Shown piece by piece: positions 2,978 to 44,848 of a stretch of DNA of 64,000 nt (position 1 is its first letter; each line of letters opens with the position of its first letter). The notes beneath the pieces are model-generated. The model worked only from the letters and a program-made list of their open reading frames with translations. It made no database searches and was not told the DNA's origin. The stretch lies in assembly GCA_043808285.1 (NCBI GenBank), contig JAZDFA010000007.1, positions 129,187 to 193,186 on the forward strand, in the 5' to 3' direction. The DNA is from an archaeon. GTDB lineage: Archaea > Nanobdellota > Nanobdellia > Pacearchaeales > DTIR01. The position numbers were made by a program, and so were the translations under genes.

Positions 2978-3081
2978 TTTTTCAAGCAGATTATCTCTAT
3001 TGATAATCAAAAGTGAGGTGACGCGGGGGTTTCTTGGTTTTACAGAAAGAAGTTTTGAGAGACAGAAAGAATTAAATTTGT

Positions 3082-4074
3082 ATGCCTCTAATAATATTGA
3101 ATAAGCCTAAAAAAATGAAATTAGACATAAAGAGTTATTTTTCAACAAGAATAAGAGCTAGATTAGCAGAGTTCATAGTCTCTGAAGTGGCAAGGGGCAT
3201 TTTAACAACTAAATATCCTCCGGAAATTTTAGAAGAAGAATTCTTTAATATCATTCCTAAAGAAGAAAAAGATTTCTTAAAAAAATATTGGACAACTTTT
3301 GATATCTTTAAGCCTATCTTTGAAATTATTGATGAAATCCCAGTATACGAAGATTTTATTCTATATGAGGTTAAGAGCAAAGTAATAACTGAGAAGAATC
3401 AAAGAGAATTAGAAAATCCAATTATAAGATTATCCTTAAATCAAAAACAATTCCTAGATGAATCTAAGAAGTTAGGCATTGCTGTGAAGTTTTTTTTAGT
3501 TTTCTTTTTGAAAGACTGGGAAGTCCAATACAATGAATTTGATATAGATAATTTAAGTGCTTATACTAAACCAAATTCAGTTTGGAATGAAGAAAGAATG
3601 AAAAGAATAAAGTCTTCAAAACTAAGCCAATTTTGGAATGATTTATTCCCAGATAGAGTTTTATACCGCATAGATGAAAAAGAATTAGAAAAAGAAGAAA
3701 AAAAGCAATCTGAAAATTATCTAAAAGAGATTGTAAGGACTCCCTTAAATGATTTTGAGAAAAAAATGTTGATCGAACGTGCAAAAAAGAAAAATAAACC
3801 TACGCCAAAATTTTTAGAAGAGGAGCATTATGAAAGAGCAGAGTATGACAAAATAAAAAATGGAAAAAGAATAAAAATTGGAGAGGATTATCTGGACAGA
3901 GTACAGAAGATAAAGGAGACTTTTTCAAATGCCTATGAGCCTTGGGAAAAAGAAGAGGAAGATAGGCTAAGAGAGTTATTTTCTGAAGAATCAAAGATTA
4001 AGGAAATCTCCAAAATTTTAAAAAGACAGCCAGGAGCTATTAAATCTAGATTAAAGAAGATTGGTCTTCTATAA
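3082..4074 (+). CDS. Hypothetical protein with a putative PD-(D/E)xK nuclease-like N-terminal region and a C-terminal Myb/sigma-r4-like HTH
   Basis: 330 aa. It has a D..(n)..LYEVKSK motif, a charged coiled middle, and a C-terminal PWEKEEEDRLRELF..SKIKEISKILKRQPGAIKSRLKKIGL typical of short Myb/SANT-like HTH modules. Confidence 0.4.
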   Translation: MPLIILNKPKKMKLDIKSYFSTRIRARLAEFIVSEVARGILTTKYPPEILEEEFFNIIPKEEKDFLKKYWTTFDIFKPIFEIIDEIPVYEDFILYEVKSKVITEKNQRELENPIIRLSLNQKQFLDESKKLGIAVKFFLVFFLKDWEVQYNEFDIDNLSAYTKPNSVWNEERMKRIKSSKLSQFWNDLFPDRVLYRIDEKELEKEEKKQSENYLKEIVRTPLNDFEKKMLIERAKKKNKPTPKFLEEEHYERAEYDKIKNGKRIKIGEDYLDRVQKIKETFSNAYEPWEKEEEDRLRELFSEESKIKEISKILKRQPGAIKSRLKKIGLL

Positions 4075-4098
4075 TTTTCTTTGGATTTGCAAGTGGAA

Positions 4099-4115
4099 GA
4101 TTTTTATAGAATAGA
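4099..4115 (+). promoter_or_regulatory. TATA-box promoter of the nuclease gene (GATTTTTATAGAATAGA)
   Basis: An AT-rich TTTTATAG box lies 31 nt upstream of ATG 4130. The same 17-mer recurs at 8117-8133, 32 nt upstream of xseA. Confidence 0.5.
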
Positions 4116-4129
4116 AAGATTATCCGAAG

Positions 4130-5020
4130 ATGCCAAAAAATCCGCTGAGATATCAGAAAGGAAAAAAGAGTGCTGCGACAAGGAAAAAGATTTCTGCAAC
4201 GCTTAAAGAATATTTCAAGACGCATCCTTCGCCTTTCAAAGGCAAAAAGCATTCCGCTGCCAAAAAAAGGGAGATGAGCAGATTGAAGATTGAGTTCTTG
4301 AGGCAAAATCCTTCGTGGGCTGCGAAGAAAAGCAAGGAGATGAAGAAGTATTGCAAGAAAAATCCTGAATTTATGCGGAAGGCGCAGAAAATTTCTATTG
4401 GTTACATGAGAAAACATCCGGAGATATTGGAAAGAAGAGCGGAGAGCATAAGGCTTCGATACAAGAATGACAAGAAGCTCATAAAAAGAATATCTTTCAA
4501 GCTGAAAGAAAAATGGAAAGACCCAACTTACGCGAATCTTGTTGATTCAAGGGTTACGGCATGGTGGAGAGAGCATCCTAATATGAAAAAGGAAAGGGCA
4601 GAAGAGGCGAGAGAATACTTTCTTGCTCACCCAGAGGATTTCAGGGAGAAATTCCTTAACGCGAAAAGCAATCCGTTCAAGTGCCACATAATGACAAGAC
4701 AGGGATTCAAGGTTAGAAGCAAAGGAGAGAAAAAGATTGCAGATTATCTGTTTGAAAAAGGGATTGAGTGTGAGTATGAAAGTGAAAACTTTATTTTAGA
4801 AGGGTGGGCGTGCACCCCTGATTTCTACCTGCCAGATTATGATTATTATATTGAGTTTTACGGCGGGTTTCCCGGCAGCAGGCCCAAAAAGGTGTTAAAG
4901 AACAGGCTTTATCCGAAATACTCTGTTGCTTGTATATTCATAACGCCTGATGAGTTGAGAGATCTTGATACTGCTATTAAAAAAGAGTTGCGTAGGAGTT
5001 TCGGAGAAGGGAGCGTTTAG
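4130..5020 (+). CDS. NUMOD3-like DNA-binding repeats fused to a C-terminal PD-(D/E)xK (Vsr/restriction-endonuclease-like) nuclease; homing-endonuclease-like selfish gene
   Basis: 296 aa. There are two GKK(H)S..(K/R)KK(I/M)S motifs (NUMOD3-like) in a K/R-rich N-terminal half. The C-terminus is SKGEKKIADYLFEKGIECEYE....PDFYLPDYDYYIEFYGG. Its 3' end has several decayed copies in this window. Confidence 0.55.
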   Translation: MPKNPLRYQKGKKSAATRKKISATLKEYFKTHPSPFKGKKHSAAKKREMSRLKIEFLRQNPSWAAKKSKEMKKYCKKNPEFMRKAQKISIGYMRKHPEILERRAESIRLRYKNDKKLIKRISFKLKEKWKDPTYANLVDSRVTAWWREHPNMKKERAEEAREYFLAHPEDFREKFLNAKSNPFKCHIMTRQGFKVRSKGEKKIADYLFEKGIECEYESENFILEGWACTPDFYLPDYDYYIEFYGGFPGSRPKKVLKNRLYPKYSVACIFITPDELRDLDTAIKKELRRSFGEGSV

Positions 5021-5043
5021 AAAGGGTTAGCTATCTTATTTCC

Positions 5044-5562
5044 CTACATAATTATTGCCTCAATTTTATTTATGAAACTATAAGCGTCTTGCTTTATGCT
5101 TTCAGCTATTTCTTTTGTTGTTTGTTTTGTTACGCTATACTGTGCAATTTCTCTCTTATGTTTTGCCGCAGATAACTTTTCTATCTCTGATTTTTGTATT
5201 ATGGCATTTTTCAAAAGATCTATGTCTTCCTTAGATATTATTTTCTTTTTAAGAAAAAATTCTTCAAGCAATTTTATTGTTGCGGTGTGATTCCTGCTCT
5301 TGTATCCAATTTTCGCAATTAGGGATAATGCCGCAGCATACATTGCGTAATATCCGCAAATAACCACCCATTCATCACTGTTATAATCAGAAGGTATCTT
5401 TAGCAAATCTCTTGCTTTTTGGTTATTGTTTAGATCTGAAAGCAGGCTCATTGTGACTAAGTTAGTTCTTGCTTTTTGCAGGTATTTTTTAGAAAGATTT
5501 TTTGCAGAATCATCTTTTGAGATATATCCTCCACTGATTAGCTGCTTAATGTCATTTATCAT
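5044..5562 (-). CDS. HEPN domain protein (toxin-like partner of the upstream nucleotidyltransferase)
   Basis: 172 aa. The pattern YYAMYAAALSLIAKIGYKSRNHTATIKLL ... KHKREIAQY fits the HEPN family. It overlaps the MNT gene by 11 nt. Confidence 0.65.
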   Translation of the reverse strand: MINDIKQLISGGYISKDDSAKNLSKKYLQKARTNLVTMSLLSDLNNNQKARDLLKIPSDYNSDEWVVICGYYAMYAAALSLIAKIGYKSRNHTATIKLLEEFFLKKKIISKEDIDLLKNAIIQKSEIEKLSAAKHKREIAQYSVTKQTTKEIAESIKQDAYSFINKIEAIIM

Positions 5563-6211
5563 CTTTATACATCCAATAATAAAAATTATCTCCCCCTTTA
5601 AATGCTATTCCATACCTCTTTAAATCATGCCACAGTTCAGGATTCTCCTTTTTTATCTTAGGAAATTCGTGAATTGGCAATACTACCTGAGAAAAGTTGA
5701 TCCCGTATTTATGTTTTAATGATTTAACAAAATCCTCTGCCTCTTTTTCTTTACCTGGGATACAGGTAATAATCAAATCAACATCGCTTTGTTTATTCTC
5801 AGTTCCTTTTGAATAACTTCCAAACAAGATTACTCCCAATGAAAGGGGATTATTCTCTACTTCTTGGATTGCATTATAGACTGTTTTGTGTTTCTTAATA
5901 AATTGGACTTTTCTTTGGAGCATATACCTGATAAAACCTAGGCTATAAGAGTATGGAGTTTTTGTATCAAGAGAGTAAACAAGAGTTTTTCCTATTTGTT
6001 TTTCGATAACAATCTTTTTTTTAGTTAAAGATTTTAAGGCAGCATTAACTCTCTCATAAGAATAGTCAACTCTCTCTTGAATCTCTTTAATTGTCATCTC
6101 CTCAGCTTCTGGGAAAAAAGCAGCAATTATAGTTCCCTCTAAATGAGAAATCTCCAATTCCCCAAAAATTGCACTAAAACCTTCTTCCTGCTTTCTTTTG
6201 ATCTTTTCCAT
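5552..6211 (-). CDS. Minimal nucleotidyltransferase (MNT) with an N-terminal winged-helix domain
   Basis: 219 aa. It has the LFGSYSKGTENKQSDVDLII nucleotidyltransferase motif (GS..(n)..DxD). The N-terminal ~90 aa look like a wHTH (TIKEIQERVDYSYERVNAALKSLTKKKIV). Confidence 0.8.
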   Translation of the reverse strand: MEKIKRKQEEGFSAIFGELEISHLEGTIIAAFFPEAEEMTIKEIQERVDYSYERVNAALKSLTKKKIVIEKQIGKTLVYSLDTKTPYSYSLGFIRYMLQRKVQFIKKHKTVYNAIQEVENNPLSLGVILFGSYSKGTENKQSDVDLIITCIPGKEKEAEDFVKSLKHKYGINFSQVVLPIHEFPKIKKENPELWHDLKRYGIAFKGGDNFYYWMYKDDK

Positions 6212-6217
6212 TTTCCT

Positions 6218-6255
6218 ATTACTGATATTTCAATAATATTACTGATTTATCAGTA
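6218..6255. promoter_or_regulatory. Candidate operator of the MNT-HEPN operon
   Basis: ATTACTGAT occurs twice (6218-6226 and 6238-6246). The second copy forms the palindrome TACTGA-TTTA-TCAGTA with 6249-6255. The site lies directly upstream of the minus-strand start at 6211. Confidence 0.4.
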
Positions 6256-6647
6256 GTTAAATATCTTTCGGTTGGGGAATTATGGTGTTTTTTATAAATA
6301 TTGGAGAGGCTCCGTATCTTGATACAACGCTTATAAGCCCAACTTTCATTATTTTAAGATGGGCAAAAAAGAGGCTCTTGATTGCAAGATATCTAAGATT
6401 ATAGAAGATATCAGAGAGATAAAAGAAGAAACTGTCAAGATAAGAAACAGGCTGCAAGAATTATTCCCTATTTTTTATTCTTATCATGCTCCTTTAATCA
6501 GGTTAATTAAAGGAGCGGAGAACCTATCACCTCTGGAAGTTTTTAACCTGAGTCAGTTAGGGTATCACCACTGATTTATCCGCAAAAGAGGCATTTCATA
6601 AAGGCTAGCGGTTTTAGCAAAAAACCGCTGCCTTTTGTATTTATTGT

Positions 6648-6699
6648 GATTCTGGGGGGGGGGGTGGAAAGGGAGTTTCGGGGGAAGGGGGCGTTCTAA
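6648..6699 (+). repeat. Decayed relic of the 3' end of the 4130..5020 gene family, containing a G11 homopolymer
   Basis: GATTCTGGGGGGGGGGGTGGAAAGGGAGTTTCGGGGGAAGGGGGCGTTCTAA parallels ..GAGTTTCGGAGAAGGGAGCGTTTAG at 4993-5020 and the relic at 9575-9629. Confidence 0.5.
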
Positions 6700-6707
6700 C
6701 CAAAAAG

Positions 6708-6735
6708 TATTTAAATGTTATAACAATGTTATAAC
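6708..6735 (+). promoter_or_regulatory. TATA box followed by a tandem palindromic operator (2 x AATGTTATAAC)
   Basis: TATTTAAA at 6708-6715. AATGTTATAAC sits at 6714-6724 and again at 6725-6735, and each contains the perfect palindrome GTTATAAC. The ATG at 6739 implies a leaderless mRNA. Confidence 0.5.
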
Positions 6736-6738
6736 CTT

Positions 6739-7515
6739 ATGGAAGCAATCATAAAAGATGCTATTAAAGTAGGAAATAGTGCCGGGATTCTGCTGCCAAA
6801 ATCATGGGAAGGTGGCAAGGTTAAAGCAGTGTTAATTGAAGAGCCCTTAAACATAAAGTGGGAGGTATTAAGGATTCTTGAGCCCTATCTAAAAGACATT
6901 ATTGCAGTATTCCTTTACGGTTCTTATGCCAGAGAAGAGCATGACAAAAAATCTGATGTAGATGTCTTAGTGGTAGCAAACAGGAAAATAGATATCCCTA
7001 AAAAAAGCAGGTTTGATATTACGGTCATTACAGAGGACAAAACAGGCAAGATGAGGGACAATGACCCTATTTTCTTCTATTCGTTATTAAGAGAGGCAAA
7101 ACCAATAATAAATGCATCATTTCTTTTATCCCTGAAGAAAGAAGAGCCAAGAGCAAGTTATTTCCGGAATTTTATTGAAAGCACCAAAAGGATGATAAAA
7201 ATGAACAAGGAGTTTATAGAACTTGATAAATTGGACGGGGAATTGCTTGAATCCACCAGCGTCATTTATTCAATAATATTGAGGCTGAGAGGAGTTTTCA
7301 TTATAAACCTGATATTAGAAAAAAAAGAATATTCCAATACCCTATTCAAAAATTGGATAAAGAACAATGCTGCAGGAATTGAGTATGACAAAATTTACAA
7401 CATCTACAGAGCAATAAGGGATAAAAAAGAACCTGAAGAAGAGGGAAAAATTAAAGATGTGGAAATGCTGCTGCATCTGCTTGAAAAAGAGATAAGTAAA
7501 CTGGAGAAAAAATAA
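6739..7515 (+). CDS. AbrB/SpoVT-like DNA-binding domain fused to a nucleotidyltransferase domain
   Basis: 258 aa. The N-terminal VGNSAGILLPKSWEGGKVKAVLIEE looks like an AbrB-type swapped hairpin. It is followed by the NTase motif LYGSYAREEHDKKSDVDVLVV and a helical C-terminal half. Confidence 0.65.
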   Translation: MEAIIKDAIKVGNSAGILLPKSWEGGKVKAVLIEEPLNIKWEVLRILEPYLKDIIAVFLYGSYAREEHDKKSDVDVLVVANRKIDIPKKSRFDITVITEDKTGKMRDNDPIFFYSLLREAKPIINASFLLSLKKEEPRASYFRNFIESTKRMIKMNKEFIELDKLDGELLESTSVIYSIILRLRGVFIINLILEKKEYSNTLFKNWIKNNAAGIEYDKIYNIYRAIRDKKEPEEEGKIKDVEMLLHLLEKEISKLEKK

Positions 7516-7519
7516 AAAA

Positions 7520-7705
7520 ATGGCAAATAGAAAAAAGAGGCTTAAGAAAGGAATAGAATCTCTCAAGAAGCAGATAATGTTCCATGAAGAAAAACGGGAA
7601 AAAGCTAAAGAAGATGGAAAAGAGGAATTAGTTTCTTACTATGATGACGAGATTAAATCAAAAGAGAAGGATATAGAAAAGAAGAAGATAATTCTTGATA
7701 AATAA
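7520..7705 (+). CDS. Small lysine/glutamate-rich coiled-coil protein
   Basis: 61-aa ORF that starts 5 nt after the previous stop. It has no recognisable domain. Confidence 0.3.
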   Translation: MANRKKRLKKGIESLKKQIMFHEEKREKAKEDGKEELVSYYDDEIKSKEKDIEKKKIILDK

Positions 7706-7706
7706 G

Positions 7707-7755
7707 TTGGAAGTTAAGGGGGGGTTTCCTGGGATGGAAATGTTTAGGTTTCTAA
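7707..7755 (+). repeat. Internally deleted relic of the nuclease-gene 3' end
   Basis: GGGGGGGTTTCCTGGG (compare GGCGGGTTTCCCGGC at 4863-4877) is joined to ..ATGTTTAGGTTTCTAA (compare the relic tail at 9615-9629). Confidence 0.45.
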
Positions 7756-7841
7756 TCATTGTATTCCTGCTTTAGGTGGTAGGGTGACGCAATAAGGTTT
7801 GGTTTTGGATGGGTAGGCTTGTGTTTCGGATTTTTGTCTAG

Positions 7842-8110
7842 TAGATTATGATTATTATGTCAAGAACACTTGACAAAACTCGTGTGTTCTTGATCATCCT
7901 AAAGTTGCCTGCTAAATCAGTATTCAGCAACTTTATGATATTGAGTTTTATGGGGGGTTTCCTGGGTCGAGGAGGAAGAAAGTGATTAAGAATAAGCTGT
8001 ATGCTAAGTACTCTGTTGCTTGCATTTTTATTACGCCCGGAGAGGTGGGGGATTTGGGTGGGGCGATAGTTGGGGAACTTGAAAGGGAGTTCGGACGTGG
8101 GAGTGTGTGA
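7842..8110 (+). pseudogene. Decayed copy of the last ~190 bp of the NUMOD3/PD-(D/E)xK nuclease gene, interrupted by an 81-bp hairpin element
   Basis: TAGATTATGATTATTAT / ATTGAGTTTTATGGGGGGTTTCCTGGG...AAGTACTCTGTTGCTTGCATTTTTATTACGCC...GGGAGTTCGGACGTGGGAGTGTGTGA is collinear with 4834-5020 of the intact gene. The reading frame is not preserved upstream. Confidence 0.75.
7859..7939 (+). mobile_element. Hairpin MITE-like element (IS200/IS605-derivative-like), copy A
   Basis: It is inserted right after TTAT. Stem 1 pairs TCAAGAACAC (7860-7869) with GTGTTCTTGA (7884-7893). Stem 2 pairs TAAAGTTG (7900-7907) with CAACTTTA (7928-7935). It is absent from the homologous position of the intact gene. 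Confidence 0.7.
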
Positions 8111-8116
8111 AGGATG

Positions 8117-8133
8117 GATTTTTATAGAATAGA
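8117..8133 (+). promoter_or_regulatory. TATA-box promoter of xseA, identical 17-mer to the nuclease-gene promoter
   Basis: GATTTTTATAGAATAGA lies 32 nt upstream of ATG 8149 and is identical to 4099-4115. Confidence 0.5.
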
Positions 8134-8148
8134 GAACTAGAGTAAAAT

Positions 8149-9375
8149 ATGGAAACCAATCTTGAGCCGAATACAAAAATATATTCTGTAGATGAAATAA
8201 CAACGCACATTAAAAATTTAATAGAGAGGGATGAAGCCTTGCAAGACATTTCTGTTGAGGGAGAGATATCTAATTTCAGGCATTCCAATAAAATGCATAT
8301 GTACTTCAGTTTAAAGGATGAAAATTCAATAATAGAATGTGCCATGTTTCAAAGGGCAAATCAGAATCTGGAATTTATGCCATCAGATGGAATGAAAGTA
8401 GTTGTCAGAGGATATCTGGAGGTCTATAAACCCAGAGGCACATATCAAATAATTGTAGAGGAAATGCATCTAGCCGGAAGGGGCAAATTGTATCTTGAAT
8501 TTTTAAAACTAAAGGAAAAATTGGAAAAAGAAGGGCTATTTAAAGAAGACCACAAGAAACCTCTTCCAAAATATCCTAAAACTATAGGCGTGATTACATC
8601 TCCTGAAGGGGCAGTTATTTATGATATCATTAAAGTTGTAAAAAGAAGATATCCCCATGTCAAGATTATACTCTTCCCTTCCCCGGTTCAGGGAAATGAA
8701 GCAAAATATAGGATAGTAGAAGGAATAAAAAAATTAAATCAGATTTGTGTTGATGTGATAATTATTGCAAGAGGGGGTGGTTCATTTGAAGACTTATGTT
8801 CATTTAATGAAGAGATTATTGCAAGGGCAGTTTATGATTCCAAAATACCAATAATCTCTGCTATAGGTCATGAAACAGATTTTACAATTATAGATTTTGT
8901 GGCTGATAAAAGAGCTCCAACTCCTTCTGCGGCTGCTGAATTGGTAGTTCCAGATGAAATAGAAGTTTACAATAATCTTTCCAATCTTGAAAACAAGATC
9001 TATAGGTGCATGATAAGAGTAATTGAATCTTATAAACAAAGAATCCATTATATCTCAAATAGACTGATTTTTAAAAGACCTTTTAGTTTAATAGAAGGAT
9101 ATAAACAAACTCTGGATGAACGAGGAATCCAGCTTAAACAAACAGTAGTTAACAAAATTGAAATTCTAAAAAGAGAAGTAAATGGATTTGAAGGAAAGCT
9201 GAACGCTTTAAGCCCTTATTCAGTATTAAAGAGAGGATATAGCATCACACAAAAAGATGGTAAGATTGTTTCAAGCATAAAGAATATAAGCAAGGGAGAT
9301 ATTATTTACACAATTGTAAAGGATGGGGAAATAAAATCTGGGATAAAAAACAAAAATGAAAGAAAAATCATTTGA
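8149..9375 (+). CDS. xseA: Exodeoxyribonuclease VII large subunit
   Basis: 408 aa. An N-terminal OB-fold region (VEGEISNFR.H..GH.YF.LKD) is followed by GVITSPEGAVIYDI, IIARGGGS.EDL and ISAIGHETDFTI, the canonical XseA pattern. Confidence 0.9.
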   Translation: METNLEPNTKIYSVDEITTHIKNLIERDEALQDISVEGEISNFRHSNKMHMYFSLKDENSIIECAMFQRANQNLEFMPSDGMKVVVRGYLEVYKPRGTYQIIVEEMHLAGRGKLYLEFLKLKEKLEKEGLFKEDHKKPLPKYPKTIGVITSPEGAVIYDIIKVVKRRYPHVKIILFPSPVQGNEAKYRIVEGIKKLNQICVDVIIIARGGGSFEDLCSFNEEIIARAVYDSKIPIISAIGHETDFTIIDFVADKRAPTPSAAAELVVPDEIEVYNNLSNLENKIYRCMIRVIESYKQRIHYISNRLIFKRPFSLIEGYKQTLDERGIQLKQTVVNKIEILKREVNGFEGKLNALSPYSVLKRGYSITQKDGKIVSSIKNISKGDIIYTIVKDGEIKSGIKNKNERKII

Positions 9376-9571
9376 AGAGGCATTGGAAAAAATAGACGAG
9401 GTCATAACCTCACTTGAAGAGGAAGATTTGCCATTGAAGAAAAAAATAGAAAAATTCAAGGAAGGCGCTGAATTACTGAAATTTTGCAACAAAGAGCTCA
9501 AGGAATCTGAGCTGAGCATACAGAAGATTTTAGATAAAGATGGAAAGATCAAGCTCGAAGAATTTGAATAA
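9356..9571 (+). CDS. xseB: Exodeoxyribonuclease VII small subunit
   Basis: 71 aa. SFEEALEKIDEVITSLEEEDLPL is the XseB signature. It overlaps xseA by 20 nt. Confidence 0.8.
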   Translation: MKEKSFEEALEKIDEVITSLEEEDLPLKKKIEKFKEGAELLKFCNKELKESELSIQKILDKDGKIKLEEFE

Positions 9572-9574
9572 AGA

Positions 9575-9629
9575 GATTCTGGGATATTTGGGTAGGGAGT
9601 TCGGAGAAGGGGGGTGTTTAGGTTTCTAA
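9575..9629 (+). repeat. Decayed relic of the nuclease-gene 3' end
   Basis: GATTCTGGGATATTTGGGTAGGGAGTTCGGAGAAGGGGGGTGTTTAGGTTTCTAA translates in one frame to ..LGREFGEGG.., compared with ..LRRSFGEGSV* in the intact gene. Confidence 0.5.
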
Positions 9630-9641
9630 AAATAAGATATT

Positions 9642-10088
9642 TTACTTTTCTTTATTATCAAAGAAACAATGTTTCCTTACTACTTGTATAAGTTCTTTAC
9701 TCTCTTTACTTTTTGTATCTTGCATTTTCCACTCTTCTAATTTTATAGAAGAAGCATTAAACTGATAATAAGCATTTTTATAGAAAATAGCACTTAAAGT
9801 CATAAGAATTCCTAAAGAAACAAGGATTACTGAATAATCTTTAAATGAAAAGGATAGTAAAATTAAGAATAAACCAAAAAAAAGTACCCCCCATGCTCTT
9901 TTTTCTTCTAAATCTATTGAAACTAGGTGCTTATAATCTAAATCTCTCAGAGTTTTATCCCCCACTAAATTTTTTTTGAATTTTAATAACCTCTTGTTTG
10001 TCGCAATCCAATTTATGCCCCCCACTTTATGTTCATACTCTATCTTCTCTTCGGGGGATAATTGATTTAAGATATATTCTTCTACCAT
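9642..10088 (-). CDS. Membrane protein with an N-terminal bacterial-PH-like domain
   Basis: 148 aa. GGINWIATNKRLLKFKKN is followed by two hydrophobic helices. The domain assignment is weak. Confidence 0.35.
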   Translation of the reverse strand: MVEEYILNQLSPEEKIEYEHKVGGINWIATNKRLLKFKKNLVGDKTLRDLDYKHLVSIDLEEKRAWGVLFFGLFLILLSFSFKDYSVILVSLGILMTLSAIFYKNAYYQFNASSIKLEEWKMQDTKSKESKELIQVVRKHCFFDNKEK

Positions 10089-10171
10089 GTTAGTACCTCT
10101 TTTCTATGATGCTAGAGTTAGTTAATAGAGATATTTAAGGGTTTTGGGCAAGAGGCAGAGGGGAATTTGGG

Positions 10172-12094
10172 TTAAAAATTAATTCTAGATTTAAAATAAT
10201 TCTCAACTTCTTTATCCACAAAATAAACATAACATCCCTTCATGCCTCTTGACATTAAGACACGATAAATATTCTTAACATACTCATCAAATCTCTCTCT
10301 GCTTTTTTTTAGCATTGGGTCTTTAGATCCATCACGGTTAGCTATCAAGCAATCATTCGCTTTGTCATATTTTAAATCAGCACCAACAATTACACCTATA
10401 TAATCGAACTCAAAACCCTGAGCAGTATAGATACATCCAACTTGTTTAATCCCTTCTGGTTTATATGCCCACTCATACCACCTAACATAACCTTCTGGAG
10501 GGGTAATGTCTCCATGAGTTTCCCAAGGCATTTCAAAACTTTCAATTTTAACATCTTTTACTAATTCTCCTTTTTCATTAAGTTTTGTAGACCAGGGCCA
10601 ACAATATCCTGCAACAATCCTAGCACTCATGCTTTTTTGTGAATTTTTCTCTTTTATTATCTCATAAAGTTGATTTGGAGAATCTATGATTTGAAAATCA
10701 AAATTATCTTCTTTTTTCAAAATCTTTTTTTCAGAAGTATATCCTAAAACATGTTCTAACCAATCCAGATAGTTATCTGAACCATTACATCTAAACTGCG
10801 AGGTTAGCTCCACTTCTTCGATATTTCTTCCCAACATCTCTCCAGTCTTTTTGATTAATTTAGTATTTCCTACTTCTGCGCCCCTGATCGTCTGTTTGTC
10901 ATCTATAAAAAAAATAGAGGTTTTTGCACACCTAATTAACTGCTCTACTTGAGGCATGGTTGTTCTATTCTCTTTTTTAGTGAATCTATGGTCTGATTTT
11001 TCACCAATTCTATGTGCTTCATCAACAATTAAGATATCTAACTCATTTTCACCAATTTTGGTAGGTATATATGGATCTAAACTGGTAAAGAGTATTTTGG
11101 CATTAACTTCTCCAACTTTTTGCCCCCTTTCCATCTTATATCTGATTGCTTCAATTAATGGTTTTGACCTAGATGAAAAGAATATCTTGTATTTCTTATC
11201 TTTATGACCTGCAAATTCTGCCAGAATATGTAAAGCGATTACTGTTTTACCAGTGCCAGGCCCGCCTTTTACTATAACCACACTTTTTTCATTGTTTGTT
11301 TCACCTTTTTTTATTTTATCAACAATCGCATTTCTAGCATATATCTGATCATCAAGCAAATTAAAATCAGATTCTTTTTTTATAACGGTGGAAGCATTAT
11401 CCAAAAGTTTTCTTGAGGGTCTTATGGGAGATTCCATGAACTTATTAAAAATATCAAAACCATCTTCTTGACCTAGTAACTCTTTCAATCTCTCTGCTAA
11501 TTTCTCTATATCGTTTTTTGTGTAGATTGGATATTTGGCTAGAACTTCACTATATTTGATGTCAAATAATCCTTTTCCTTCTTTTTTATCATAATTTGGG
11601 CAATAAGCACAACCAAATAAATTAACTTCTTTTTCTTCAAATATTTCCACAAAACCCAATAGATAATTACTGTATCCCTGAACTTGTTGTGAAGGATGCG
11701 CAACCTTTCTTTTATCTCCACCAGTATATGTTTCCACAAAGTTTCCTTCACAGTCTAATGCTTCTACATCTTTCCATTGCTTCATCTCTATATGCACGAC
11801 TATCCCTTTTCCGTGTTTATTCTTACCAAATAATAAACAGTCAATTCTTTTCTGGGTATAGGGAACTTGATATTCAAATGAAACATAAACATTTTCTAAA
11901 CAGCCTAATTCAATCAAATTTTTTATTACTTTTCCAGTATCTACCCAAGAATTAAACTCTGGCTCTCCAGCCTTTCTTCCGTAGGATTTTGAGAAGTTTT
12001 CTTGAAGTATGTCTGCAAATTTATTTAGTAATACATCTCTGACAAATTGTTTTTGCGGTGCGTCATAAATAATCAGTCTATTCAGCATTTTCAA
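10172..12094 (-). CDS. DUF2075-type SF1 helicase/ATPase with an N-terminal PD-(D/E)xK nuclease-like domain
   Basis: 640 aa. The N-terminus has IDCLLF..(n)..VVHIEMKQW (D...ExK). It also has Walker A GGPGTGKT, DEAHR, and the C-terminal YTAQGFEFDYIGVIVG and YRVLMSRGMKGCYVYF. The start is TTG at 12094 or ATG at 12088. Confidence 0.8.
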   Translation of the reverse strand: MKMLNRLIIYDAPQKQFVRDVLLNKFADILQENFSKSYGRKAGEPEFNSWVDTGKVIKNLIELGCLENVYVSFEYQVPYTQKRIDCLLFGKNKHGKGIVVHIEMKQWKDVEALDCEGNFVETYTGGDKRKVAHPSQQVQGYSNYLLGFVEIFEEKEVNLFGCAYCPNYDKKEGKGLFDIKYSEVLAKYPIYTKNDIEKLAERLKELLGQEDGFDIFNKFMESPIRPSRKLLDNASTVIKKESDFNLLDDQIYARNAIVDKIKKGETNNEKSVVIVKGGPGTGKTVIALHILAEFAGHKDKKYKIFFSSRSKPLIEAIRYKMERGQKVGEVNAKILFTSLDPYIPTKIGENELDILIVDEAHRIGEKSDHRFTKKENRTTMPQVEQLIRCAKTSIFFIDDKQTIRGAEVGNTKLIKKTGEMLGRNIEEVELTSQFRCNGSDNYLDWLEHVLGYTSEKKILKKEDNFDFQIIDSPNQLYEIIKEKNSQKSMSARIVAGYCWPWSTKLNEKGELVKDVKIESFEMPWETHGDITPPEGYVRWYEWAYKPEGIKQVGCIYTAQGFEFDYIGVIVGADLKYDKANDCLIANRDGSKDPMLKKSRERFDEYVKNIYRVLMSRGMKGCYVYFVDKEVENYFKSRINF

Positions 12095-12453
12095 AGCTCG
12101 TTATATTTCTTATTACTCCCCTTCGCCTTTTCAACGGGATATTTCTTTTCGTTCTTTTCCAGCTTCTTATTTAACTCTGTTGCCAAGTCTATGTCATATT
12201 TTTGGGCAAGCCTGATTAGAAAGTATAAAACGTCGGCCATCTCCTCGGAGATGTGCTGCTTTTTCTCTGGATTCTTGAACATTTCTTCTATTTCTTTTTC
12301 AGATTTAAACCTGAAATGCTCTAGAAGCTCTGAAGCTTCGGTAATAATGCCTATTGCAAGGTCTTTGGCTCCGTGATACTGGTCCCAGTCCCTGTCTTCG
12401 CAGAATTTCTTTACTTTTTCCTTTAGTTCCTGAATGTTGGTTTTGTGGTCCAT
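12091..12453 (-). CDS. MazG-like (DCTPP1-type) nucleoside triphosphate pyrophosphohydrolase
   Basis: 120 aa. FCEDRDWDQYH..KDLAIGIITEASELLEHF....EEMADVLYFLIRLA....DL......KLEKNEKKYP matches the all-alpha MazG/dCTPase pattern. Its stop lies within 4 nt of the DUF2075 start. Confidence 0.85.
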   Translation of the reverse strand: MDHKTNIQELKEKVKKFCEDRDWDQYHGAKDLAIGIITEASELLEHFRFKSEKEIEEMFKNPEKKQHISEEMADVLYFLIRLAQKYDIDLATELNKKLEKNEKKYPVEKAKGSNKKYNEL

Positions 12454-12522
12454 GTTGCTACAAGAATTGTTGGATTTATAGGGTTTTCGATAGGATGGAT
12501 AGAGAGGATATTTTAAATAGAT

Positions 12523-13257
12523 TTGTTGAATTGCTTAAGAATGGATAAATTAAAGAGAATAGTATCTGATAGGCAATGGTATCACACTTCAGCACCACTA
12601 AAGGTATTTGAAGGAAGACTTAAAGATATGATATTTTTAGAAGGAACTATCCTTACACAAAAAAATATGAATTCTTCAACTAAAAACGAAGCAAGAAAAC
12701 AATATGTAATTATGTTAGTTACATGTTATGAAACATATACTAGGGAAATGTTCAAAATATTGATTAATGAAGAACTTGTTGCTATTCCTAAAATAAAAAA
12801 GATGAAGGATGTAAAATTCGCAATAGAAGAAATTGAATATATAAAGAAAAATAATATAGAGTTATCTGAGTTGCTAGCAGAGTACATAAACTTTCAAAAT
12901 TTTGAAGAAGTACTTGAAATATTCAAAAATTTCGGATTAAACAAAAAAATAGATGAGAGTTTAAATAATCGGGATGGAGTTATGCCACTGCCAGATTCTA
13001 TTTTTAAGAATAAAAAGATAGATAGCGAAACTTTCGTAATTGAATTCTTTAAACAGATGACACTACATAACAAAATAGACAAAGAATACCTCTTTCATCA
13101 AATTAGGCTATTATTAGGAATAAGACATAAAATAATCCATAAGAATATTGATATAACCATTGAACAAGAAGACCTATTAACATTCACTCTTGCGATCTAT
13201 GAAATTGTTATGATACTAGACAGGTTCGTTCAAGACATGACATCCTCCCCACCCTAA
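12523..13257 (+). CDS. HEPN-like (RiboL-PSP/Abi-like) protein
   Basis: 244 aa, all-helical. The C-terminal LLLGIRHKIIHKN contains an Rx4H HEPN motif. It is divergent from the MazG-DUF2075 operon. Its last codons run into the IS200-like element. Confidence 0.4.
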   Translation: MLNCLRMDKLKRIVSDRQWYHTSAPLKVFEGRLKDMIFLEGTILTQKNMNSSTKNEARKQYVIMLVTCYETYTREMFKILINEELVAIPKIKKMKDVKFAIEEIEYIKKNNIELSELLAEYINFQNFEEVLEIFKNFGLNKKIDESLNNRDGVMPLPDSIFKNKKIDSETFVIEFFKQMTLHNKIDKEYLFHQIRLLLGIRHKIIHKNIDITIEQEDLLTFTLAIYEIVMILDRFVQDMTSSPP

Positions 13258-13943
13258 AGGTTTGATGCTGATGCATCAAATCCTCACTTCGTTCGGAGTG
13301 GGGTTTCCATGATGGTGTTCTTCTTGATTCAAGATATAATTTCTCACAACATCTTCTTGAACAAATCCTACTGAAGCTGCAAACTTGCCTCTGCTCCATA
13401 AATGCCCTTTGGGATACCTTAATCTTGCCTTTGGATTTTTCTCAAAGAAAAGTTTTGCAGATAATCCTTTTAAAATTAGCAAAACCTTTGATGCAGACAT
13501 ATTCAAAGAAACTTGCACTTCACAATGAATATGCTCTGGCATCACAGATAAAACAATAATTTTTATGTTATGCATGATTGCTGCCCTTCTTATGCAAGCG
13601 ATGCAAAGATTTTTTTGCTCTTCTTTAGCAAACATTTTGTAGGCATACTTTGATTTCCATTCAAGATGAAGCATCATCACCCCAACAGAATGAGAGTAAT
13701 GAGCATACTCATGTTTTTTATTTTCTGTATAGCTCCCGCTAAGTTGTATTTGTGTTTCCATTTTTCTCCGCACGGGGCGCGTTGTCGCGCACCGTAAAGT
13801 TTATTATCTGAGAGAAAGTTACAACTACATCTGATGATTTTCAGGGAGCTGCAACAAGCTCTCCCTGAATTATAATTTCTAAAGTAGAAAAAGATTACCG
13901 CAAACGCACTACTCCAGCCTAAAGGCTGGGGATTTCTTCTTAG
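13258..13943 (-). mobile_element. IS200-like element (boundaries approximate)
   Basis: tnpA is flanked by hairpins. On the 3' side: TTTGATGC-TGAT-GCATCAAA (13261-13280). On the 5' side: GCGCG-TTGT-CGCGC, CAGGGAG..CTCCCTG and CCAGCC-TAAA-GGCTGG (13786-13930). I saw no terminal inverted repeats, as expected for this family. Confidence 0.5.
13276..13773 (-). CDS. tnpA: IS200/IS605-family Y1 (HUH) transposase TnpA
   Basis: 165 aa. It has the HUH motif PEHIHCEV, LKGLSA, and LWSRG...SVG.....V.NYILNQ with the catalytic Tyr, collinear with IS200 TnpA. Confidence 0.85.
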   Translation of the reverse strand: MRRKMETQIQLSGSYTENKKHEYAHYSHSVGVMMLHLEWKSKYAYKMFAKEEQKNLCIACIRRAAIMHNIKIIVLSVMPEHIHCEVQVSLNMSASKVLLILKGLSAKLFFEKNPKARLRYPKGHLWSRGKFAASVGFVQEDVVRNYILNQEEHHHGNPTPNEVRI

Positions 13944-13996
13944 TTAATTAACGTTTTAGCAGTTATAGAGTAAGGCAGTTGATGGGTATTTTTAGG
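13944..13996 (-). repeat. Dispersed intergenic repeat (IGR family); the only inverted copy in the window
   Basis: The reverse complement reads CCTAAAAATACCCATCAACTGCCTTACTCTATAACTGCTAAAACGTTAATTAA. Confidence 0.7.
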
Positions 13997-14017
13997 GTAG
14001 GGATAAATGGAAAATCA

Positions 14018-14097
14018 TTTCTGCAAAACTAAGGGAAAAACAAATCTTCTAAGAACTAAAAACCTCTCCACCCCAGTCCTAACTTATAAAATTAAAC
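14018..14097 (+). repeat. Dispersed intergenic repeat (IGR family), degenerate forward copy
   Basis: TTTCTGCAAAACTAAGGGAAAAAC...CTAAAAACCTCTCCACCCCAGTCCTAACTTATAAAATTAAAC. Confidence 0.55.
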
Positions 14098-14866: not shown

Positions 14867-14957
14867 ATGTCACGTAAATTAACAACCCTCCAAAAGAAAA
14901 ACCCTGCTGCAAACTCCTAAAAATACTCCGCGTAACCTTATTCCTGTATTTAACAGG
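14867..14957 (+). repeat. Dispersed intergenic repeat (IGR family): a tail module plus one unit
   Basis: ATGTCACGTAAATTAACAACCCTCC is followed by CTGCAAACTCCTAAAAATACTCCGCGTAACCTTATTCCTGTATTTAACAGG. Confidence 0.7.
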
Positions 14958-16738: not shown

Positions 16739-16989
16739 TCTGCAAAACATTGATTAATAATTATTAATTTAGTGGGCGGCTTAAAGGTGGGGGGAAGCAA
16801 AGATGGGGCAGGTAAGGGATTCTAACAGGAAATTTTCTTGGATTTTTCTAGGATAAAAGAGAATTAGGGCTCAATGCCTATTTAAAAAATTCAAGTGTGA
16901 AAGAAAAAATCTTCTACAAACCCCTAAAAACCCACCACGTAACCCTGCCCCTATACTGCTAAAGAAGGATACAACAATTAACAACCTCC
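16739..16989 (+). repeat. Dispersed intergenic repeat (IGR family): a short unit plus a long unit
   Basis: TCTGCAAAACATTGATTAATAA, then TTTAGTGGGCGGCTTAAAGGTGGGGGGAAGCAAAGATGGGG...AATTCAAGTGTGAAAGAAAAAA...CACGTAACCCTGCCCCTATACTGCTAAAGAAGGATACAACAATTAACAACCTCC. Confidence 0.75.
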
Positions 16990-33377: not shown

Positions 33378-33443
33378 TCTTCCAAAACCAAAAATTATAT
33401 TGAGCCACCTTACTCCTAACTGCTAAAATGTCACGTTAATTAG
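33378..33443 (+). repeat. Dispersed intergenic repeat (IGR family), forward copy
   Basis: TTCTTCCAAAACCAAAAATTATATTGAGCCACCTTACTCCTAACTGCTAAAATGTCACGTTAATTAG. Confidence 0.75.
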
Positions 33444-33483
33444 AAAAAGGTTATAGCTATTTTTCACATCAAAAAAACATGAG

Positions 33484-33638: not shown

Positions 33639-33676
33639 ATAAAAAAATTAATAAATGCCAGTTGGTTAGCCCATGA

Positions 33677-37191: not shown

Positions 37192-37222
37192 CAAGATCAA
37201 AGCCATACGGGGAAAAGATCTT

Positions 37223-37293
37223 GATGCAAAACCCTAAAAATATTCTTCGTAACCCTACACCTATACTGCTAAATGTCACGTGAATTAACAACC
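37223..37293 (+). repeat. Dispersed intergenic repeat (IGR family), forward copy
   Basis: GATGCAAAACCCTAAAAATATTCTTCGTAACCCTACACCTATACTGCTAAATGTCACGTGAATTAACAACC. Confidence 0.8.
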
Positions 37294-37312
37294 ATTCGTA
37301 AAAAGATAAATT

Positions 37313-37387
37313 ATTTCTGTAAAAACAAGAAAATCCACTAGTGAGCCTTACTCCTACACTGCTAAAATGTCACGTCAATTAACAACC
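37313..37387 (+). repeat. Dispersed intergenic repeat (IGR family), forward copy
   Basis: ATTTCTGTAAAAACAAGAAAATCCACTAGTGAGCCTTACTCCTACACTGCTAAAATGTCACGTCAATTAACAACC. Confidence 0.8.
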
Positions 37388-37409
37388 CCCCAAAAAACAT
37401 TTTTCTTAT

Positions 37410-37493
37410 GTCAAGAACACTTGAAAAAACTCGCGTGTTCTTGATCATTCTAAAGTTGTTGTGTGCAGACAATAACACTTAACAACTTTATAA
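37410..37493 (+). mobile_element. Hairpin MITE-like element, copy B
   Basis: It starts after TTAT (37406-37409). The stems are TCAAGAACAC..GTGTTCTTGA and TAAAGTTGTT..AACAACTTTA. It is collinear with copy A at 7859-7939. Confidence 0.65.
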
Positions 37494-37592
37494 TTAGACT
37501 AAACTATATATTCAATAAGAAAAATGTTTTTAAATACATAGAGTAATGATTTCTTATTCACAAAAAGGTGTTTATAATACGAGGTTAAAAAA

Positions 37593-38855: not shown

Positions 38856-38931
38856 TCTGCAAAAAAAGAAACTACAATTAGTAAGCCTTATTCTATTAAC
38901 ACCTAAAGCGGGAATACAGTAATTAACAATC
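38856..38931 (+). repeat. Dispersed intergenic repeat (IGR family), forward copy (GCGGGAATAC variant)
   Basis: TCTGCAAAAAAAGAAACTACAATTAGTAAGCCTTATTCTATTAACACCTAAAGCGGGAATACAGTAATTAACAATC. Confidence 0.7.
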
Positions 38932-40148: not shown

Positions 40149-40361
40149 TTCGTGGTCAAGGGTTAATGGGGTAAAGGCAGCAAAGATGAGTGAGGACAAG
40201 ACACTGGGAAAAAATTCTTTTCTGGATTATTTTTAGTAAGATGAATTATAGAGTCATTCGTATTAAAACAATTCAAGTGTGAAAAAACATAATCTGCAAA
40301 TCCAAAAAATACTCTGCGTAACCTTGCTCCTAACTGCTTGATTTCACGTTGATTAACAATC
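40149..40361 (+). repeat. Dispersed intergenic repeat (IGR family), long forward copy
   Basis: ..GTGGTCAAGGGTTAATGGGGTAAAGGCAGCAAAGATGAG...AATTCAAGTGTGAAAAAACATAATCTGCAAATCC...GCGTAACCTTGCTCCTAACTGCTTGATTTCACGTTGATTAACAATC. Confidence 0.75.
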
Positions 40362-40397
40362 TTCCTTAAAGAAAAATTAATGATTATCAATCTCTAT

Positions 40398-43601: not shown

Positions 43602-44225
43602 TTATTGTTTAACAAGAGATTCAAGGCTATTTTCTCTCTTTGCTCCATTGTGTTCTTCGTTTCCTGCCGATTTATTAACATCAGTTATAAAAACCGCAGC
43701 AGCAATTACAGTAGTCCATAAATCCCCCTTTGGCACTTCTGCTGACTGGCATATATGTGTTGTCTTGAATATATGCCCAGATGCCTTGTATATCTGTTCT
43801 CTTTCTTTCCATGCCTTATCCGGGTCAAATTCTACTCCCAGTGTTGTTGCAAGCATTGTTGCAGCCAAGTCTTCTGCATATTCTCCCGCTTCATCAGCTG
43901 TCTTGCCCTCGCCATGATATTCAGATAAGTATCCATATTGCCTGTCTCTTGCCTTTGGCACAGCAACTCCAAGTGCGGCAGATATAAGCCTATTTCGTTT
44001 GTCTGCAGATATGCGTGCCATGACGCAGTAAGTTATATCTCCTGGCTCAAGCAGTTGTATTCCTCTTTCTCTGGTTATTATCTGGCAATTTGGCGGCAGA
44101 ATGCTTGAAACATAAACAAGATTGCATTTTTCTATGCCTGCTTTTCTTAATGCAAGTTCAAATGAACCCAACCCTTCCTTATGGATTCCATACCCTTTTG
44201 TAAAGAATACTTTTTTTGGTGCCAT
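43602..44225 (-). CDS. pdaD: Pyruvoyl-dependent arginine decarboxylase, paralog 1
   Basis: 207 aa. [35 protein letters not shown] contains the self-processing Ser-Ser site. Confidence 0.85.
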
Positions 44226-44233
44226 TTACTTAT

Positions 44234-44848
44234 CTATATCTTTTTAACTTCTACTTTAATGTTATTTTTATTGCTATTCTCATCCTTAGAATCAATTATA
44301 AAAACTGCTGCTGCAATACAAGTAGTCCAGAGTCCCTCTTTATTTCCTGTTGCAGACTGGCATATGTTTGTTGTCTTGAATATATGCTTAGATGCCTTGT
44401 ATATCTTTTCTCTTTCTTTCCATGCCTTATCCGGGTCAAATTCTACTCCCAGTGTTGTTGCAAGCATTGTTGCAGCCAAGTCTTCTGCGTACTCTCCTGC
44501 TTTTTCGTCTGTCTCGCCGCAGGAATGATGCTCTGATAAATATCCATACTGACTAGCTCTTGCCTTTGGCACAGCAACTCCAATTGCAGATGCTACTAAT
44601 CTATTTGGTTCATTTGTTTCATTCTTTGCCATTACGCAAAATGTTATCTGTCCAGGCTCAAGCAGTTTAATTCCGTTTTTCTTAGGTATTATCTGGCAAT
44701 TTGGCGGCAGAATGCTTGAAACATAAACAAGATTGCATTTTTCTATTCCTGCATTTCTTAATGCTTTTTCAAATGATGCAAGCTTGTTTTTGTCTACGCC
44801 TACTCCTTTTGTAAGGAACATTTTTGTAGGCAATATTTGTGAATACAT
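44234..44848 (-). CDS. pdaD: Pyruvoyl-dependent arginine decarboxylase, paralog 2
   Basis: 204 aa. It has the same signature ([38 protein letters not shown]). It sits in tandem with paralog 1. Confidence 0.85.

Follow-up and report, generated by a model that had tools for sequence, protein, structure and literature searches.

The 64,000-nt stretch of DNA analyzed here (the window; contig JAZDFA010000007.1, positions 129,187 to 193,186, from an archaeon placed in the Pacearchaeales) carries three copies, termed A, B, and C, of a short hairpin-forming repeat. We consider it likely that these repeats are transposable elements of the miniature inverted-repeat type (MITEs) of DPANN archaea, of the kind known as palindrome-associated transposable elements (PATEs), most likely mobilized in trans by a Y1 (HUH) transposase, TnpA, of the IS200/IS605 family of insertion sequences (IS). 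A first-pass annotation of this DNA had proposed IS200/IS605-type transposition on single-stranded DNA (ssDNA), and several observations support that proposal: a Y1 transposase is encoded in the same window, hairpins of full-size family members match those at the ends of the IS, nucleotides beside these hairpins follow the guide rule of IS608, the dinucleotide AT precedes the element at every delimited site, and no target duplication is seen in three pairs of filled and empty sites. That the TnpA of the window is the mover of the MITEs, and that the route is through ssDNA, we infer from these observations.

Three copies in the window share one architecture

Copies A, B, and C were all present as annotated: each starts with a 10-bp stem, GTCAAGAACACTTGA...GTGTTCTTGA, and has TTAT directly before it. 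When up to one mismatch was allowed, the 11-mer GTCAAGAACAC was present 7 times (expected, 0.56), a count reached in 0 of 100 shuffles. The second stem described for copies A and B, TAAAGTTG(C/TT)..(G/AA)CAACTTTA, was also confirmed. The annotated coordinates were correct for copy A, but copy B ends at 37494 rather than 37493, and copy C runs on to 33468 for a total of 171 nt. There, copy C also closes with a second stem and ..TTTTTTTGAT (terminal TGAT), so one architecture is common to all three copies. Folded as ssDNA, the copies gave z-scores relative to shuffled sequences of -5.9 (A), -4.8 (B), and -10.8 (C). In copy B, the terminal AAT pairs with a linker ATT, a compensatory change relative to ATC/GAT. 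The window (G+C content, ~35%), whose genes include those for an elongation factor of the EF-1-alpha type and a homologue of the RuBisCO large subunit, was scanned with a covariance model built from core copies; only these three copies and a weak fourth one were detected. The fourth copy is laid out as ATAAAAACC..GGGTTTTTA AGATCC TAAAAACAAAAC..GTTTTGTTTTTTTGAT and resembles an element at another locus (L025, 3229-3113); as aligned by the model, it is preceded by ..ATC, not ..AT. The features are as follows.

7855-7858, plus strand: TTAT directly 5' of copy A, its target and putative left cleavage tetranucleotide
7859-7939, plus strand: copy A, 81 nt, stripped MITE (covariance-model match, 44.9 bits, E 1e-7)
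7860-7869 / 7884-7893, plus strand: outer hairpin 1 of copy A, followed by linker TCATCC
7900-7908 / 7927-7935, plus strand: stem 2 of copy A
7937-7939: 3' GAT of copy A, pairing with linker ATC at 7896-7898
37406-37409: TTAT 5' of copy B
37410-37494, plus strand: copy B, 85 nt, stripped MITE (covariance-model match, 41.6 bits)
33639-33642 (plus-strand numbering): TTAT 5' of copy C
33638-33468, minus strand: copy C, 171 nt, full-type MITE with two accessory hairpins after its first domain
33621-33618: guide AAAA of copy C
33617-33597: IP_L-like hairpin of copy C, enclosed by outer hairpin 1
33508-33489: IP_R-like hairpin of copy C, enclosed by stem 2, with CAAA just before it
33471-33468: terminal TGAT of copy C
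59898-59829, minus strand: probable fourth copy, divergent, 70 nt (23.9 bits, E 0.003)

The family is widespread in DPANN genomes and follows AT

Public genomes and metagenomes were scanned with the hairpin-1 pattern, which yielded 24 loci in three Woesearchaeota/Nanoarchaeia metagenome-assembled genomes (MAGs) and 46 metagenome loci; viral contigs scanned for the same motif gave 0 matches. The covariance model recovered further divergent members among the fetched loci (L numbers below), and the family occupies more than 50 independent sites in these MAGs and metagenomes. A literature search on DPANN, Woesearchaeota, or Nanoarchaeota together with IS200 or MITE found no description of this family, within incomplete coverage.

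Element lengths were mostly 49 to 261 nt with a mode of 120 to 121. Longer copies (165 to 261 nt) carry extra small hairpins, and shorter ones (49 to 95 nt) are without one or both inner hairpins. In the full-size element of ~120 nt, of which copy C is a 171-nt version, the flank ..TTAT is followed by G and the 5' arm TCAAGAACAC, then TTGAC, the guide AAAA, and an IS-type hairpin designated IP_L. The 3' arm GTGTTCTTGA closes this first domain, and the linker GCATCC leads into the second domain, in which the 5' arm TAAAAACAAG.. is followed by the guide CAAA, another IS-type hairpin (IP_R), the 3' arm, and the end TGAT. Across the family, hairpin 1 has a TCA...TGA base and usually encloses a G+C-rich hairpin with a TTTA-type loop, and the second long stem encloses a conserved unpaired CAAA and another TTTA-loop hairpin; T + GAT forms the 3' end. 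Only the MITE has the outer arms, which pair its termini into two adjacent stems. The structure is supported by compensatory changes in 10 of 44 predicted pairs among 11 core copies. In addition, the 3' trinucleotide covaries with the linker, as ATC/GAT in most copies, ATT/AAT in copy B, and ACT/AGT in others. Consistent with the earlier statement that terminal inverted repeats are absent, the ends GTCAAGAAC.. and ..TTTTTGAT, ..TTTATGAT, or ..GAAGT are not inverted copies of one another; each pairs locally.

The first-pass annotation had regarded TTAT as the fixed context of insertion. At 47 of 47 independent delimited sites the preceding dinucleotide was AT (background frequency, 0.096), but TTAT itself was found at only 22. 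ATAT accounted for 9, TGAT, TAAT, ACAT, and others made up the rest, and ATAT and ACAT were seen in one subfamily. TTAT is therefore subfamily specific, and only ..AT is universal. The 3' flanks of the 47 sites were unrelated. Directly after the MITE end ..TGAT in L022 (2264-2276) stands GTCAAGAAATGCC, resembling the start of a second, truncated element; a second insertion may have occurred in tandem, 3' of the TGAT that ends the first element.

Copies insert without target-site duplication

Copy A lies within a relic nuclease gene, which allowed comparison with an intact paralog in the window.

7802-8110 (7802-7858 plus 7940-8110), plus strand: nuclease relic, a C-terminal fragment of a PD-(D/E)xK-like nuclease paralog, split by copy A
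4130-5020, plus strand: intact nuclease paralog, 296 amino acids, with the empty site ..GATTATTAT^ATTGAG.. at 4849^4850 (here and below, the caret marks the junction)

Homology between relic and paralog runs at an offset of 3,009 nt before copy A and 3,090 nt after it (repeat families D17 and D5), so exactly 81 nt were inserted. The insertion point falls between codons 240 and 241 of the intact frame (..DYDYY^IEFYGG..). The relic comprises 75 C-terminal codons, with a W-to-stop change among them, and copy A inserted into a gene fragment that was already truncated, a pseudogene. The claim of a clean insertion without duplication holds for the 81 nt inserted, with 2 nt left ambiguous, since the flank ..AT is identical to the element end ..AT.

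Two further filled/empty pairs were found among the fetched loci. A 51-nt element in L010 follows ..GAGCAT^ in a host otherwise identical to the empty L008, and a 49-nt element in L008 follows ..GGGAAT^ in a host matching the empty L015. These mini-elements (L010 1441-1491; L008 3904-3952) consist of two simple hairpins with linker GCACT and 3' end AGT, are without IS-type hairpins, and are cleanly inserted in the linker (GCAT^ or GAAT^) of larger family members. Target-site duplication was absent in 3 of 3 pairs, with a residual ambiguity of 1 to 2 nt.

The 296-amino-acid paralog has repeated basic N-terminal motifs and a PD-(D/E)xK-like C terminus (..PDFYLP..YIEFYG..). It gave only a weak, subthreshold match to T7 endonuclease I (Phage_endo_I), and it had no NCBIfam match. 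With its decayed paralog 3 kb away, this nuclease gene may itself be selfish or duplicating.

An intact IS200-type element lies 5.3 kb from copy A

The window contains a candidate source of transposase, an intact full-length IS that carries tnpA only.

13947-13944: TTAA preceding the IS
13943-13237, minus strand: full-length IS200-type IS, tnpA only, ~707 nt
13935-13932: guide AAAT of the IS left end
13931-13912: imperfect palindrome of the left end, CCCCAGCC TTTA GGCTGGAG
13307-13304: guide GAAA of the IS right end, followed by CCCCAC...GTGGGG and the 10 nt AGGATGTCAT ending at 13237
13276-13773, minus strand: tnpA, Y1 HUH transposase (homologs begin at ATG 13761)

The gene was located by phmmer with two Y1-transposase sequences, which served as a lead only; a single open reading frame (ORF) matched in all fetched DNA. 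The protein retains both an intact HUH motif (EHIHC) and its catalytic tyrosine (NYILNQ), and it matches Pfam Y1_Tnp (PF01797) at 80.7 bits (E 1.2e-22) and NCBIfam transpos_IS200 (NF033573) at 79.8 bits, above the cutoff of 55. More than 700 close homologs were found, with identities of 66 to 91% among the matches listed; most lie on short contigs, as expected of repeats, and some are annotated as IS200/IS605 transposases of Nanoarchaeota.

One homolog, P0020, occurs in at least five contexts, and alignment of these defined a ~700-nt tnpA-only IS with sharp ends TTAA^...GTCAT^. Its left flank is TTAA, its start is (C/T)..AAGAAATC followed by an imperfect palindrome, and its end is GGAAAC, a palindrome, and AGGATGTCAT. 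All nine TnpA variants examined end in the same manner, with TTAA^(C/T)..AAGAAATC-hairpin on the left and hairpin-AGGA(T/G)GTCAT^ on the right. A tnpA unit with its own ends in at least five contexts behaves as a mobile IS. Both MITEs and this IS family were detected in the window and in sample Ga0209541.

Identical IS copies on L071, L072, L076, L079, and L075 have one flank in common across contigs and differ in the other; L071 and L072, for instance, agree in the right flank but not in the left. Such one-sided sharing suggests IS-mediated rearrangements between strains. In the window, the right end of the IS overlaps the last codons of a convergent HEPN (RiboL-PSP) ORF at 12523-13257.

MITE and IS share hairpins and a guide rule

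The inner MITE hairpin AACTCCACACTTTAGTGTGGAG is identical, over 22 of 22 nt, to the right-end hairpin of the P0120/P0111 IS, and the inner hairpin CTCCATCCTTTAGGATGGAGTT matches the left-end hairpin of the P0058 IS at 22 of 23 nt. A MITE covariance model (R1) weakly matched IS right ends on the tnpA strand. These IS-like hairpins are a feature of full-size members, among them the copy C type, and both are missing from copies A and B. The comparison with full-length IS ends that the earlier annotation had called for thus gave a divided answer: the inner hairpins match, but the termini differ.

In IS608, each hairpin has a 4-nt guide on the 5' side of its foot, whose bases pair with those of the cleavage tetranucleotide as G1:C-3, G2:C-4, and G4:C-1 (PMC5934647), and C-2 is an A (PMC3201880, PMC5934647). 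Applied to the DPANN elements, this rule predicted the cleavage tetranucleotides as follows.

IS left end: guide AAAT, predicted TTAA, observed TTAA
IS right end: guide GAAA, predicted TCAT, observed TCAT, at 10 nt from the foot, the IS608 spacing
MITE left end: guide AAAA, predicted TTAT, observed in 20 of 26
MITE left end: guide ATAA, predicted ATAT, observed in 6 of 9 parsed copies; 2 more, mis-parsed copies also follow ATAT
MITE left end: guide TAAA, predicted TAAT, observed in 1 of 1
MITE right end: guide CAAA, predicted TGAT, observed in 28 of 31

Copy C obeys the rule at both ends (AAAA with TTAT on the left, CAAA with TGAT on the right). Since the AAAA and ATAA subfamilies sit at TTAT and ATAT, respectively, a single guide change is matched by a complementary target change; position -4 is A in 11 of 11 members of the ATAA subfamily versus T in 30 of 36 others. 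The right ends of IS and MITE likewise differ by a compensated swap of G:C to C:G. A guide acting as a simple parallel or antiparallel complement, or through a G3:C-4 pair, was rejected, having failed for the GATAAC-loop subfamily, which the published pairing fitted. Together, the shared hairpins and the IS608-type pairing of guide and cleavage site support the IS200/IS605 (PATE) interpretation.

By analogy with IS608, a TnpA dimer would bind the two inner hairpins on ssDNA, and the guides 5' of the hairpin feet would base-pair with TTAT in the flank and with TGAT at the element end, the two cleavage tetranucleotides. The top strand would then be cut 3' of both tetranucleotides, the element excised as a circle, and the circle reinserted 3' of a new TTAT-like site with no duplication. 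On this interpretation, DPANN genomes of ~0.6 to 1 Mb, though streamlined, would carry an active IS200-type transposon together with prolific structured nonautonomous dependants, and such elements would be a source of genome plasticity and of assembly breaks in these uncultured archaea. The subfamilies with guides AAAA, ATAA, and TAAA at TTAT, ATAT, and TAAT would represent a natural retargeting experiment, extending the IS608 rule to a distant archaeal lineage from sequence alone.

Two features of particular members were noted beside these results. In the GATAAC-loop subfamily (L005, L009, L014, L020, L023, L024, L026, L031, L044, L054, and L057), the sequence on the 5' side is TTAAYAT, in which the IS target TTAA is followed by Y and AT; the guide ATAA accounts for the A at -4 but not for the upstream TTA preference. 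Small A/T-rich hairpins, often TCA...TGA-based, accumulate in the right-end hairpin loop of MITEs (stem 2 of L001, L004, L018, and L019) and full-length IS alike (right ends of L071, L081, L105, and window 13296-13262), and yield the 165- to 261-nt variants.

Stripped copies and the limits of the TnpA model

Aligned with their closest full-size relatives, L028 and L050, copies A and B have kept the outer arms, linker, stem 2, and termini and are without both inner hairpins, with clean boundaries at AAAAC[..]TCGTGTG and ACAA[..]TAACAC. The stems that the first-pass annotation took for diagnostic subterminal hairpins are therefore the outer arms, and the transposase-type hairpins are the part missing from these copies. 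Under an IS608-type mechanism, copies A and B would no longer be recognized by TnpA and should be immobile, decayed fossils.

Several observations weigh against mobilization by this TnpA. The left deletion boundary is identical in copies A and B, which occupy unrelated loci and keep canonical flanks and ends; other short forms (49 to 95 nt) without one or both inner hairpins keep them too. Stripped forms may thus have moved in a way that classical TnpA recognition does not explain. The AGT-ending mini-elements of 49 to 51 nt do not fit the guide rule, and the parsing of hairpins for the guide comparison used a foot defined by homology, with terminal A-T pairs trimmed. Among the nine TnpA variants, no full-length IS had MITE termini (GTCAAGAACAC.. 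and ..TTGTTTTTTTGAT), so the MITE is not a simple internal-deletion (fused-end) derivative and its cognate enzyme is one that we infer. Neither L002, a possible left end of a full-length element, nor the genes between two copies in L047 included a transposase. Outside the window, the ~510 kb of MITE-bearing loci, which are only genome fragments, yielded no TnpA gene. A BLAST search with joined flanks against all fetched loci gave no orthologous empty site across strains, and exact-protein look-ups for three genes flanking copies returned no record and hence no strain-level empty sites.

The alternative that draws most on these observations treats the outer-arm hairpin unit ([AT]^GTCA-stem-TGA, linker, stem, and linker-paired 3' end) as a mobile module in its own right. 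The IS200-type hairpins would then be cargo or later acquisitions, the mover would be something other than classical TnpA hairpin recognition, and A, B, and the 49- to 66-nt forms would be the minimal active elements. Copies A and B, at unrelated loci with canonical TTAT flanks and a shared deletion boundary, are what such a module would leave; the mini-elements are clean insertions in the linkers of two different hosts, short forms recur at many loci, and the pairing of 3' end and linker covaries independently of the inner hairpins. However, the guide/target covariation involves the 4 nt adjoining the inner hairpins, and with these hairpins as passive cargo it would be difficult to account for. 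Palindromes are prone to deletion, and stripped forms may also have arisen after insertion or spread by recombination between copies. Moreover, a motif scan for TnpB and serine recombinase and a phmmer search of the fetched DNA yielded no candidate alternative enzyme. A precedent exists in Haloquadratum, where SMR-A repeats insert into PATE and IS605 palindromes without duplication (PMC3119063). On balance, we regard an independent outer-arm module as unlikely. We are similarly doubtful that the two-stem outer scaffold alone, with its paired termini and 3' trinucleotide-linker pairing, is sufficient for mobility. If it were, A, B, and the 49- to 66-nt mini-elements would still have transposed, by relaxed structure-based TnpA recognition or by another enzyme, and the mini-elements would be minimal hairpin-only mobile elements that parasitize PATEs by inserting in their linkers. 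In either case, stripped and mini forms bear on the minimal substrate for single-strand transposition.

Other explanations for the repeats

Structured noncoding RNA genes or regulatory RNA motifs, such as terminators or small RNAs, could also produce strongly covarying hairpins, and most copies are intergenic. A T-run stands at the 3' end, and oligo-T is a termination signal in archaea. However, a scan of the window at the gathering thresholds of Rfam 15 detected only two tRNAs, and no Rfam family matched the repeats. Their orientation relative to neighboring genes is random, which argues against a gene-linked regulatory motif. Some copies interrupt a gene fragment or other copies, element boundaries are sharp and the dinucleotide of the 5' flank is fixed, copy number varies, and the hairpins are modular. 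We therefore consider an RNA function very unlikely as the explanation of the family, although elements may be transcribed and have a secondary RNA role besides mobility.

A system of repetitive extragenic palindromes (REPs, or REPINs where paired) served by a domesticated, single-copy REP-associated tyrosine transposase (RAYT), rather than by an IS, would likewise combine short hairpins that far outnumber the transposase gene with a conserved nucleotide context beside the hairpin. The protein of the window, which passes the IS200 model, fails the RAYT/REP-associated transposase model (NF047646; 30.7 bits against a cutoff of 80). Identical tnpA units with their own ends occur in at least five contexts, and the tnpA gene of the window is not flanked by MITEs. 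These results make a REP/REPIN system highly improbable.

Least plausible is a DDE-type MITE with short, imperfect terminal inverted repeats and a 2-bp AT target duplication, to which we attach almost no credence. Copy A is ambiguous by 2 nt, given ..AT as its flank on the 5' side and the usual ..GAT at the 3' end, and GTCAAGAACA is weakly similar to the reverse complement of the 3' end. However, the mini-elements of the second and third filled/empty pairs end in ..GAAGT yet sit after ..AT, with at most 1 nt of ambiguity, which excludes a 2-bp AT duplication and with it the DDE-type reading. The terminal GAT covaries with the internal linker and so belongs to the element. The putative inverted repeats are not conserved between subfamilies, in contrast to the covarying local stems, and no DDE transposase was seen. 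Mobilization by a serine recombinase (IS607) or by an IS110/bridge-RNA system, considered because the same dinucleotide stands at the flank and the end, was dropped: no such enzyme was found, the targets span only ~4 nt, and the hairpins match IS200.

Comparison with known systems

With mobilization by an IS200-type TnpA as the favored explanation, the closest described counterparts are the PATEs of Haloquadratum. Those elements have no inverted terminal repeats or duplication, carry near-terminal IS605-related palindromes and a short targeting oligonucleotide, and range down to 52 bp (PMC3119063). Like the HqIRS families of Haloquadratum walsbyi, related to IS1341/IS605-type transposons (PMC3119063), the DPANN elements are noncoding and free of terminal inverted repeats and target duplication, and their near-terminal palindromes resemble those of the host's IS200/IS605 elements next to a short conserved 5' targeting oligonucleotide. 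They are also heterogeneous, with sizes down to ~50 bp, and other small elements insert into or beside their palindromes. They differ in their DPANN host and in their partner IS, which is a tnpA-only IS200 type with no tnpB. In addition, the MITE hairpins are nested in outer stems formed by the termini, these termini are unrelated to the IS ends and hence not fused-end derivatives, and many copies have lost the inner hairpins. The family is new, as is its host group for such elements, and its nested-stem architecture is unusual, yet the kind of element is already known. The 49- to 51-nt mini-elements resemble SMR-A of Haloquadratum (PMC3119063) in inserting without duplication inside PATE-like elements beside a hairpin. 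Unlike them, SMR-A is ~110 bp with prominent terminal inverted repeats, and the mini-elements share the outer-arm architecture of their host family. The small hairpins within right-end loops also parallel SMR-A insertions into PATE palindromes.

As in IS608 of Helicobacter pylori and ISDra2, the model elements for peel-and-paste ssDNA transposition in the IS200/IS605 family (PMC3201880, PMC5934647), insertion is 3' of a tetranucleotide, and both cleavage sites have T at -4 and A at -2. Guides lie 5' of each hairpin foot with the IS608 pairing. Spacing is also alike: the right site of the DPANN IS is 10 nt 3' of the foot and the left site of the MITE is ~20 nt 5' of the foot, compared with 10 and 19 nt in IS608. 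In contrast, the target is TTAA (IS) or TTAT/ATAT/TAAT (MITEs) rather than TTAC, there is no tnpB, and in the MITE ~20 nt separate the predicted right cleavage site from its hairpin, with stems sequestering both termini. The ~700-bp tnpA-only unit with structured ends is like the IS200 of Salmonella and other Enterobacteriaceae, which is nearly immobile. It differs from the latter in lineage and end sequences, and the DPANN IS is found as identical copies in several contexts. The REP/REPIN-RAYT (TnpA_REP) systems are similar in that hairpin repeats far outnumber a Y1 HUH enzyme and have a conserved tetranucleotide beside the hairpin. Here, however, the enzyme scores as an IS200 transposase and is itself mobile, and the elements have two different hairpin domains with defined left and right ends, not inverted REP pairs.

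A second dispersed repeat and the genomic surroundings

The window also contains about 14 copies of a second dispersed intergenic repeat of ~100 to 120 nt with the consensus ..CTGCAAA..CGTAACC.TAC.CCTAtAACTGCTAAA(ATGTCACGT.)AATTAACAA. Example copies are as follows.

13957-14033, 14867-14956, 16884-16984, 33383-33448, 37212-37301, and 37302-37395: second repeat
38874-38929, 40266-40369, 44985-45070, 55496-55597, 60149-60250, and 61469-61589: second repeat, further copies

Exact matches to its motif AATTAACAA all lie on the plus strand (7 of 7), several of them upstream of plus-strand genes or a tRNA-Met gene; the repeat may be a promoter module or another MITE. A relationship between the two repeat families had been suggested from the loop of copy A (CTGCTAAAT) and the end of copy B (CTTAACAAC), but these short matches are probably due to chance. 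The sequence CTGCTAAA occurs 10 times against 4.7 expected, and since most of these occurrences are inside the second repeat, one extra occurrence is unremarkable; in copy B, the terminal AACAAC simply forms the 3' side of stem 2. The second repeat does have a genuine connection of another sort: one of its copies harbors the window IS, inserted 3' of the TTAA (..CTGCTAAAACGTTAATTAA^C..). Copies B and C lie within 15 to 25 nt of second-repeat copies.

The region from 3000 to 14000, which includes copy A and the IS, is rich in defense or toxin-antitoxin-like genes and looks like a variable island. Its genes include the following.

5044-5562 and 5552-6211: paired HEPN and nucleotidyltransferase genes
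6739-7515: second nucleotidyltransferase gene
10172-12094: Schlafen-like helicase gene
12091-12453: MazG-like gene
12523-13257: HEPN RiboL-PSP gene

Elsewhere in the window, at 43602-44848 on the minus strand, lie two tandem paralogous genes of ~205 amino acids with 83 to 86% DNA identity (repeat families D1 and D3).

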